Virus genome (UHGV): UHGV-0242051
DNA: 20,023 nucleotides
Source: a virus
Direction: 5' to 3' (one strand)
The notes under the pieces are model-generated. The model searched no databases and was not told the origin of the DNA. It was given only the letters and a program-made list of their open reading frames with translations. The translations under genes were made by a program, and so were the position numbers. This document shows positions 17,978-20,023 of the stretch, one piece after another (the first letter of the stretch is position 1; every line of letters begins with the position of its first letter).

Positions 17978-18118
17978 TCATACTCCTGTTCCTGTCAGGG
18001 TTTTGGCGTAATTCTTCAGTATTCGGTAATCGGTCAAAACAGAACCGAGGAAACGATATAAGCGCAGACGCCCCCAGCGATGGCGAAGAAGTTCTGCCAT
18101 ATTAAACTCAAACATCAT
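17978..18118 (-). CDS. ylcG: Small ORF (about 46 aa) in the ylcG position between rusA and Q
   Basis: ATG overlapping the rusA stop (ATGA); hand translation [23 protein letters not shown]... Below the track's length cut-off. My hand copy of this stretch was inconsistent by one nucleotide, so end and C-terminal sequence are uncertain. Confidence 0.5.
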
Positions 18119-18477
18119 TCATTCCCCATTTCGGTGATGGTCAGTTCCAGCCTCCCACCTTTGGTAACAGGCATCTTCACAACGCGGTAATCAACGACCT
18201 GAGCATCATCCAGCCAGAAACCTGCTTTAGTGAGTGCGTCAAAAGCGGCTTTTTGCAGATTATCCAGGTCACGGCGACGGCGATCCGGCATGTGGCACTC
18301 AATGCGGATTTTCACAGGCATAGCCAGGCCGATATCCAGCATTGCGTTTTTAATGATTCGGGCGACGTTATCGCGGTATGCCTGCCCCTCTGCGCTGACG
18401 TGCGTGCGCCCGCGATTATGGCGGTAATAGCGATTATTGCTCGGAGGCCAGGGTAATGTGATGCTGTAGGTATTCAC
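18115..18477 (-). CDS. rusA: Holliday junction resolvase RusA
   Basis: 120-aa ORF (GTG start) [94 protein letters not shown]... matches remembered RusA. Confidence 0.95.
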
Positions 18478-18600
18478 GCCTTAATAACCCCCTCTTTCAG
18501 CCACATAACCTGTGTTCTCGCCATACCTTCCAGCGCGCATTCTTTTGCATATGCAGCATCGACTTGCTTGGCATGCCCTTTACCGGCAATCTTCTGTATG
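18474..18600 (-). pseudogene. 3' remnant of a ybcO-like gene (about 41 codons), N-terminal part missing
   Basis: Minus-strand frame reads ...[30 protein letters not shown] then TGA overlapping the rusA GTG, matching the remembered C-terminus of DLP12 YbcO; an in-frame TAG sits just upstream and the sequence above about 18600 is unrelated. Identification is from recall only. Confidence 0.5.
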
Positions 18601-18683
18601 CGCTAAACCTAGATAGAATCCACTCTGTGCACATTGAAGCCCGCTCTATGCTTTCTTTCAGGTATTGAAGGGATTGAGATGGG

Positions 18684-19031
18684 CTAAGCATTATTGGCCT
18701 CCTGCATCAGGAGAAAGACAATCATGGCGGCGCGGAGAGGTCTGGTATCAAATATTGGGCTTACGCCTTTTGCATCCACACACCATTCAGTTAACTGGTC
18801 TAAGATAGAAATCCTGTATTTCTCAATAATCGGCCATGAAGCGCTCGGATCATTGCAGTAGTCAGGCAAATGATTTAATGGCTCAAAAGTTGTATCAGCA
18901 TTTCCGTAATACCATTTGTTGGTGTTATTCCCTGATGTTTCCGGTTTACTTGCCCAAAGGCCTTTAAAAATTATGTCTCCTACCATTCTGTTAATTTCAA
19001 AATCACTTAACTGTGAATAATCCATTGTCAT
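18684..19031 (-). CDS. Hypothetical nin-region protein, about 115 aa
   Basis: Track ORF 18684..19067; likely start is the ATG overlapping the ninE stop (ATGA), giving [89 protein letters not shown]... No family recognised. Confidence 0.6.
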
Positions 19032-19204
19032 TTCCTCGCACGATATCTTAGCCACCGGATATCCCACAGGTGGGCTGTGTAATTGAAGGTTTTTACGTCA
19101 GATTCTTTTGGGATTAGCTTGCGTTTATTTCTGGAGCGTTTCGTTGGAAGGTATTTGCAGTTTTCGCAGATTATGTCGGTGATGCTTCGTCGCTGTCGTC
19201 TCAT
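19028..19204 (-). CDS. ninE: NinE-like protein
   Basis: Track ORF 19028..19294; from the internal Met [58 protein letters not shown] (58 aa) resembles remembered NinE; start overlaps the methyltransferase stop. Confidence 0.8.
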
Positions 19205-19728
19205 GCAGCCCTCCTGACGCCCTGCCCGATCGCCATCAATGCCGCTTTGGATACGGTAGTAAACATCCGTCGAGGACTGATGAACGGTCGCCAAATCAGC
19301 AGCATGGAGCCTTTGCTGTTTCCCTTCTTCTCCAGCCCTGTCGATGGTTCGATAAAATTAATCCGTCCATCAGTGATAATACGAACTTCGTCAACACTCT
19401 CCAGAGCCTTGCTGAACCATCCGACAGACATATCCTCTGGCACAAGCATCACTACCGTCTGTCGCTGTTGTATACACTGCTCAGCGGCTTTTTCCACCCA
19501 CGGCCTGATATTGCTGTACGGTGGGTTATTCCAGATTGCACCGTGGCTTACCCACTCAGAATTGAGCGCGTCGTCGTCCTCAGTTAGCCAGTGAGCGCAC
19601 AGAGCATTTTTGTCGCTCGCTGCCGAATCCAGCCAGAATCCAAACTCAATATCCAGTGCATCAAAAAGCCAAAGCGGCGTTTGCCAGCAGTCCTTGTCGT
19701 GTGCTGGCGTATTTGATTTGATAGTCAT
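19201..19728 (-). CDS. Phage Dam-type DNA N6-adenine methyltransferase
   Basis: Track ORF 19201..19788; likely start Met21 ([30 protein letters not shown]...) preceded by GGGGAGA about 9 nt upstream; catalytic motif IV NPPY ([10 protein letters not shown]); 175 aa. Confidence 0.85.
19373..19476. repeat. Arm 1 of a 104-bp inverted repeat (inside the methyltransferase gene, codons about 105-139)
   Basis: Exact reverse complement of 19817..19920 by hand comparison; inner end falls in TGTATACA. Confidence 0.85.
19618..19721. repeat. Copy 1 of a 104-bp (or longer) direct repeat (methyltransferase 5' coding segment)
   Basis: Identical to 19920..20023 by hand comparison (cgctgccgaatccagccagaatccaaactcaat...gtatttgatttga). 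Confidence 0.85.
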
Positions 19729-19816: not shown

Positions 19817-19920
19817 TGTATACAACAGCGACAGACGGTAGTGATGCTTGTGCCAGAGGATATGTCTGTCGGATGGTTCAGCAAGGCTCTGGAGAGTGTT
19901 GACGAAGTTCGTATTATCAC
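19817..19920. repeat. Arm 2 of the 104-bp inverted repeat (inverted copy of the internal methyltransferase segment, upstream of the gene)
   Basis: Plus strand here encodes [35 protein letters not shown], identical to methyltransferase residues, and is the exact reverse complement of 19373..19476. Confidence 0.85.
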
Positions 19921-20023
19921 GCTGCCGAATCCAGCCAGAATCCAAACTCAATATCCAGTGCATCAAAAAGCCAAAGCGGCGTTTGCCAGCAGTCCTTGTC
20001 GTGTGCTGGCGTATTTGATTTGA
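19920..20023. repeat. Copy 2 of the direct repeat, abutting inverted-repeat arm 2 with 1-nt overlap and running to the window edge
   Basis: Identical to 19618..19721; true extent unknown because the window ends. Confidence 0.85.

Follow-up and report, generated by a model that had tools for sequence, protein, structure and literature searches.

The joint between ninX and rusA in this lambda-like Escherichia coli prophage is most likely a scar, the remains of a ninE-ninX-ninF-nuclease-rusA layout from which the middle has been lost. The DNA that we analyzed (hereafter the window) is a stretch of 20,023 nucleotides from the virus genome UHGV-0242051. It corresponds to the right half of the prophage, with the early-right operon on the minus strand, where all the genes and gene fragments of the joint described below are located. 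On this strand, the genes follow each other in the order ninB-dam-ninE-ninX, then the scar, then rusA-ylcG-quuD. The joint itself is composed of ninX, a 5' fragment of ninF (ninF'), 65 bp, a 3' fragment of ybcO ('ybcO) and rusA, and homology breaks at two points, 18629/18628 and 18564/18563. The sequence is P22-like to the left of the joint (ninE-ninX-ninF') and DLP12-like to its right ('ybcO-rusA-ylcG-quuD-porin). A first-pass annotation of this DNA had described a mosaic joint with a truncated ybcO beside rusA and a new gene brought in; the joint and the truncation were found again here, while the arrival of a new gene is doubtful.

Segment 18400-19100 was 100% identical to E. coli CFT073, and the same 1.4 kb was present at 99.9% identity in many B2-type strains, e.g., Nissle 1917, UTI89, APEC O1 and ATCC 25922. 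The CFT073 gene order is ren, IS3, ninB, a Dam-type methyltransferase gene, ninE and a gene for a "phage protein NinX family protein," followed by a 90-bp DUF1364 pseudogene, rusA, ylcG, quuD and, on the other strand, a gene for an OmpC-type porin; beyond the porin gene are essD-rrrD-rzpD and the lambda-type head and tail genes. The two genes that border the region of interest were readily identified. Upstream, ninE (19028-19204, 58 aa) matched Pfam NinE with an E-value of 1.8e-41 and is annotated in CFT073 as a NinE family protein. Downstream, rusA (18115-18477, 120 aa, GTG start) encodes a Holliday junction resolvase that matched Pfam RusA (PF05866) over its full length (82 bits for a cut-off of 22.8, E 6.9e-23) and is named rusA by PGAP. 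Genes of the nin region are tightly packed, with ATGA overlaps, and mostly non-essential (bioRxiv 10.1101/2020.10.05.325894). This stretch of the window is very probably an ordinary part of the nin region, itself non-essential, in a lambda-like prophage of E. coli.

The end of the window differs from its relatives. Its last 207 bases (19817-20023) consist of two exact 104-bp copies of internal sequence of the methyltransferase gene: 19817-19920 repeats 19373-19476 in reverse complement, and 19920-20023 repeats 19618-19721 in direct orientation. In CFT073 and in 50 related IMG/VR loci, the sequence goes on into ninB from about 19817-19822 in place of these copies, which look like a contig-end or assembly artifact. 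Between 19151 and 19822, the window was 99.85% identical to CFT073 with a single-base length difference (672 versus 671 aligned bases) that falls in the methyltransferase/ninB 3' region. The methyltransferase itself is 195 aa long in the list of open reading frames, from an upstream GTG, versus 175 aa in PGAP.

As the first-pass annotation had reported, a 115-codon ORF is present at 18684-19031 on the minus strand, and its ATG overlaps the stop codon of ninE (ATGA at 19028-19031). It had been presented as unassignable, a view contradicted by its Pfam match, its PGAP name and the gene order of phage ST64T. The protein matched PF10765 (Phage_P22_NinX) with 62 bits for a cut-off of 22.6 (E 8e-17), residues 4-110 covering profile positions 1-114 of 114, i.e., the full length of the family. 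A protein search returned 229 homologues, nearly all with PF10765 and named NinX or DUF2591, from Escherichia, Salmonella, Citrobacter, Enterobacter and Klebsiella. PGAP calls the same ORF in CFT073 a "phage protein NinX family protein." Moreover, ninX is located directly 3' of ninE in ST64T, TUM9754 and ev207 as well. Because of the PF10765 match, the homologues and the ST64T gene order, this is a known nin gene in its usual place, an outcome that the first-pass annotation had itself named as one that would refute its reading. By its sequence, the 115-aa ORF is an intact NinX/DUF2591 member in the canonical slot after ninE. PGAP places the start at the second ATG (19025), which gives 113 aa and is better spaced from the upstream AGGA Shine-Dalgarno sequence; initiation at either the first or the second ATG is possible. 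The structure model of NinX was confident, and its only clear fold neighbours were two uncharacterized proteins.

On the rusA side, we found the reading frame of ybcO (DUF1364) with its TGA overlapping the rusA GTG at 18474-18477, and an in-frame TAG 41 codons upstream of this stop, both as described before. YbcO/DUF1364 proteins are His-Me finger (HNH-like) nucleases whose usual neighbours include RusA and Q (PMC5714182). The frame ends in ...KEGVIKA. The remnant previously put at about 41 codons is real but shorter: it comprises the last 29 codons and the stop (18474-18563), the 12 further codons up to the TAG not being ybcO. DNA identity to the DLP12 prophage of K-12 was 97.3-97.6% from 18563 rightwards, and the alignment at 97.3% is 1287 bp long, crossing rusA, ylcG and quuD and ending within the porin gene (18563-17279). 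At the protein level, 27 of 29 residues were identical to residues 68-96 of K-12 YbcO (18563-18477). The Pfam YbcO profile (PF07102) gave only 17.7 bits on the remnant, below the cut-off of 29.9, and aligned over positions 62-92 of 92, while the intact K-12 protein scored 144.8 bits. In agreement with this, PGAP annotates exactly these 90 bp as a DUF1364 domain-containing pseudogene, "missing N-terminus."

The N-terminal two thirds of YbcO, with the conserved Cys/His residues and a start codon, could not be recovered. The ybcO frame upstream of the remnant contains two in-frame stops and no ATG, GTG or TTG start. A tblastn search of the whole window in any frame with two divergent YbcO proteins found only residues 67/68-96, and DNA alignment detected no similarity to K-12 ybcO upstream of 18563. 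There are ybcO genes in other strains that are complete apart from frameshifts (P0017-P0020), and a full-length gene masked by frameshifts could have been imagined here too; the tblastn and K-12 DNA alignment results refute it, and we give it practically no chance. To judge from the parts that are gone, i.e., the start and the catalytic and zinc-binding, cysteine-rich part, the YbcO fragment is dead.

The sequence upstream of the remnant had been taken as unrelated. Yet it begins with codons 1-21 of ninF (18629-18691), identified by DNA homology and tblastn, with an ATG at 18691-18689 that overlaps the ninX stop. From ninE to 18629, the window was 98% identical to ninE-ninX-ninF of TUM9754, and homology ends at 18629; in P22-like Salmonella phages (ST64T, L and others), an identity of 94-95% likewise ends at 18629. 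Only residues 1-22 were recognizable by tblastn with NinF. The Pfam NinF domain (PF05810), a CxxC zinc ribbon, occupies residues 20-44 of the intact 58-aa protein, which scored 47.3 bits in TUM9754. The NinF fragment, which lacks the zinc ribbon, is dead as far as its coding content tells.

Between ninF' and 'ybcO are 65 bp (18564-18628) that bring stops into the ybcO frame; past the ninF codons, the sequence continues as ...CTEWILSRFSAYRRL... These 65 bp were invariant among 17 distinct DNA versions from IMG/VR. A low-stringency blastn search of 5426 E. coli genomes and 50,697 phage records returned only the same joint and a remnant of Stx1 type, and protein searches with the ninF-frame ORF or the ybcO-frame peptide found no intact gene containing them. 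The only other context found is a 101-bp stretch, 88% identical to window 18657-18557, located after ninE in Stx1 phages and STEC prophages. In E. coli 2014C-3051 (locus L003, 1477-1640) and in the phages AU6Stx1 and SH2026Stx1, it corresponds to unannotated ninF codons, about 11-21, plus the 65 bp. As in the window, the 65-bp segment is joined there to an internal piece of ninF; unlike in the window, this piece directly follows ninE without ninX and is followed by an AT-rich insert rather than by ybcO-rusA. The AT-rich insert carries a large hypothetical gene on the reverse strand.

Read from the retained ninF start, the joint contains a chimeric ORF of 64 codons (18497-18691), made of the start of ninF, the 65 bp and ybcO out of frame, whose TGA is directly before the rusA Shine-Dalgarno sequence, 19 nt from the rusA GTG. 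It is probably translated as a by-product and would not be a NinF. Two RefSeq phages, NC_049949.1 (ev207) and NC_049953.1 (ev099), carry this ORF labelled "protein ninF," despite its 21 NinF residues and the absence of the domain. That it is a working NinF variant, as these records would have it, agrees with the preserved start overlapping the ninX stop and with a frame open in 77 of 77 related IMG/VR loci, although sequence diversity is too low for this count to carry weight. Nevertheless, neither the Pfam NinF domain nor any other Pfam family matched the 64-aa ORF, since residues 20-44 have been replaced, and the last third of the protein comes from ybcO DNA translated in a different frame. 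The substitutions observed (5 synonymous and 11 non-synonymous) were no better than in another frame and give no signal of selection. We therefore regard a functional NinF at this position as very unlikely. The "protein ninF" label is misleading because the NinF domain is gone. No promoter or terminator was predicted in 18480-18700.

How the joint came about was approached by comparison with known nin regions. In the P22-like phages (P22, ST64T, L), the order is ninB-ninD-ninE-ninX-ninF-...-rus/ninG-ninH-ninZ-Q, and precisely ninB-ninD-ninE-ninX-ninF-hyp-HNH endonuclease-rus-ninH-ninZ-Q in ST64T. In these phages, as in the window, ninE, ninX and the ninF start follow one another with the same overlaps, at 94-95% DNA identity over 19100-18629, but in the window ninF is cut after codon 21 and the genes that separate ninF from the resolvase are gone. 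The prophage of E. coli TUM9754 (ninB-ninE-ninX-ninF-KilAC antirepressor-DUF1364-RusA-ninH) presumably presents the undeleted layout. Over ninE-ninX-ninF', its identity to the window is 96.8-98%; its DUF1364 and RusA genes, by contrast, are an allele so diverged that no match to the window could be detected at the DNA level, which makes TUM9754 a model of the layout rather than a direct ancestor. DLP12 of K-12 (ninE-ybcO-rusA-ylcG-quuD-nmpC) shows the opposite resemblance, with 97.3% DNA identity over 18563-17279 and an identical overlap of the ybcO stop and the rusA start, but it has a complete 96-aa ybcO after ninE and neither ninX nor ninF.

These comparisons most likely point to an ancestor of the form ninE-ninX-ninF-(optional cargo)-His-Me/HNH nuclease-rusA, as found intact in TUM9754 and ST64T, from which the segment starting within ninF, including its 3' part and the cargo, and reaching two thirds into the nuclease gene from its 5' end would have disappeared. 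This could have occurred by deletion, or by recombination of a P22-like left module with a DLP12-like right module. The presence of the ninF 5' fragment indicates that the left module once extended past ninX, and therefore loss from ninF to the nuclease explains the joint at least as well as the import of a gene. Ribosomes starting at the retained ninF ATG would read the 64-codon ORF and stop before the rusA Shine-Dalgarno sequence, so that the chained translation of the operon would stay covered across the scar, which may help initiation at rusA. Ribosomes probably do cross the scar; a translational bridge to rusA is a further step that we infer, and substitution patterns give it no support.

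In the history proposed by the first-pass annotation, a module was replaced in a DLP12-type ninE-ybcO-rusA region, whereby ybcO lost its 5' part and a new gene came in, with a candidate junction at about 18600-18683. This interval contains the break at 18629/18628 and misses the one at 18564/18563. Present-day sequences cannot prove in which direction the events ran and, viewed against K-12 DLP12, where ybcO directly follows ninE, the joint does look like an insertion or replacement. The abrupt start of the DLP12 homology at 18563 and its extension over 1.29 kb are in line with this history. In Stx1-type prophages, the ninB-dam-ninE sequence in common with the window ends at 19031, beyond which they diverge; in this respect ninX behaves like a cassette that may be present or absent. 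However, the imported gene is not new, being NinX in its standard position, and the ninF fragment and the 65 bp add at least two further breakpoints, for which a single replacement is insufficient. In addition, layouts with ninX, ninF and an intact nuclease gene exist in TUM9754 and ST64T. Overall, we consider the replacement history rather unlikely and favor the scar of a longer ninX-ninF-nuclease layout.

Among the protein matches of the chimeric ORF and of the ybcO-frame peptide were many short ORFs that are fusions, with an unrelated N-terminus leading into ...KGMPSKSMLHMQ... or ...KGHAKQVDAAYAKE... Their DNA came from prophages with large deletions that have one common right endpoint, a TA dinucleotide at 18581-18582. 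With a slash at the junction, the minus strand reads ...GATTGCCGGTA/AAGGGCATGCC... at this point, also written GCCGGTA/AAGGGCATGCC, and the deletion loci read ...TA/AAGGGCATGCCAAGC... (TA/AAGGGC). The sequence around the endpoint is GGTAAAGGG, and the flank kept to the right of the junction is AAGGGCATGCCAAGCAAGTCG. At least 13 different left partners were joined at this exact endpoint (loci L006, L008, L010, L017/L100, L027, L080 and L103-L109): codons 33 and 47 of lambda P, about codon 64 of lambda O, a 434-type cro, another cro-type gene, codon 6 of dam, the sieB-ral spacer, the end of sieB, the DUF1317/exo region, an Ea22-like gene, the TraR/Ea22 region, the xis region by a lambda-type int at ybhC, and a site next to a 387-aa integrase. 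For the mapped ends, the deletions span from about 0.7 kb (from dam codon 6) to about 15 kb (estimated from gene maps). All retain rusA-ylcG-Q-porin-lysis, and the larger ones lose the immunity, replication and nin genes. They were found in 4 of 589 complete genomes and in 3 of 83 IMG/VR contigs.

Each native left partner has a TA at the crossover, and the common homology is 2-6 nt. The native base after the TA was a C in 7 of 10 left partners, and several junctions had GTA at the crossover. Two left sites were used twice, namely lambda P codon 33/34 (GCAGGTA/CAGCAG, in L006 and L010) and the sieB-ral spacer (CTCGTGTA/CCCC, with CGTGTA, in L080 and L109). The scan with the ybcO-frame peptide could detect endpoints anywhere in 18474-18599, and the TA was the endpoint in 9 of 11 cases (p about 7e-6, even when only the seven TA dinucleotides in this range are counted). 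The reciprocal case, in which the left side is kept, was seen only once (L015, joined to the 3' end of ylcG) versus 13 cases keeping the right side. We observed no hairpin at the TA, where predicted secondary structure was no better than in shuffled sequences (z 0.44), no Chi site near it and, in 5426 complete genomes, no IS at the endpoint. A probe for the right junction expected from IS excision gave no case in complete genomes, which leaves that model unsupported. Symmetry around the TA is weak (TGCC-GG-TA-AAG-GGCA), and the partner sites have little in common apart from TA or GTA.

An IS21-family element (left end TGTCACGAACGG..., IstA starting MVTFETVMEIKILH) was present inside the scar in two draft genomes, at points 30 bp apart: at about 4114 in L013 (window about 18579, after GGTAAA, 2 nt from the deletion endpoint) and at about 4144 in L014 (window about 18549). 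Its IstA start is IS100-like, and the element differs from the ISEc10 copy in the CFT073 prophage.

The recurrence of one endpoint raises the tentative possibility that the TA at 18582-18581 is a site of DNA breakage, nicking or site-specific recombination. The 13 left partners, the scan result, the excess of right-keeping cases and the reuse of two left sites in different events all speak for it. On the other hand, no enzyme, motif or structure emerged, the microhomology of 2-6 nt is also compatible with plain replication slippage, the deletions are rare, and the independence of some of them is uncertain because nested deletions share ancestry. A true hot spot of breaking, nicking or stalling is conceivable though doubtful; candidates for its cause would be an enzyme resembling a topoisomerase or a recombinase, a nuclease that nicks DNA, or a barrier to replication. 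If it existed, the right end would be joined through the microhomology to sites 0.7 to about 15 kb upstream, with repeated loss of the nin genes upstream of the scar and, in larger cases, of the replication and immunity genes, whereas rusA, Q, the porin gene and the lysis genes would be kept.

One further feature of the endpoint was read from the sequence. The bottom strand is GCCCTT/TA, and the junction lies exactly after CCCTT, which is the pentamer of the poxvirus-type topoisomerase IB, with its cleavage point at the junction. Work by Shuman from 1991 is reported to have dealt with illegitimate recombination in E. coli by vaccinia topoisomerase I at CCCTT. E. coli is not known to have a type IB topoisomerase. 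As in illegitimate recombination driven by a topoisomerase or a recombinase, the deletions have one endpoint that is constant to the nucleotide and partners that differ, but the partner sites are without CCCTT and the motif was spotted after the fact. The match can thus be offered as a lead only. Template switching primed by microhomology, after a nick at a specific site or a stall of replication, would be as good a fit.

The identical joint was present in 559-585 of 5426 complete E. coli genomes, roughly one in ten of the sequenced E. coli. It was also present in 27 phage records, among which are the RefSeq phages ev207, ev017, ev099 and 2G7b and the phages mEp332, PhiR57_1 and Lambda_2E9. 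Public annotation already has names for both the gene and the pseudogene, and this common scar is one more mosaic joint in a notoriously mosaic region. Its distribution suggests that it is old, successful and apparently harmless, fixed in a widespread prophage and phage lineage. Accordingly, ninF and ybcO appear dispensable, and the joint in sequenced phage genomes offers natural evidence for the dispensability of ninF and of the YbcO nuclease. Further study might be worthwhile only for the deletion endpoint that recurs. If the hot spot were real, it would provide a sequence-directed route to grounding prophages and, if many independent deletions do go to one nucleotide, prophage decay would have here a specific molecular cause that can be tested in the laboratory.
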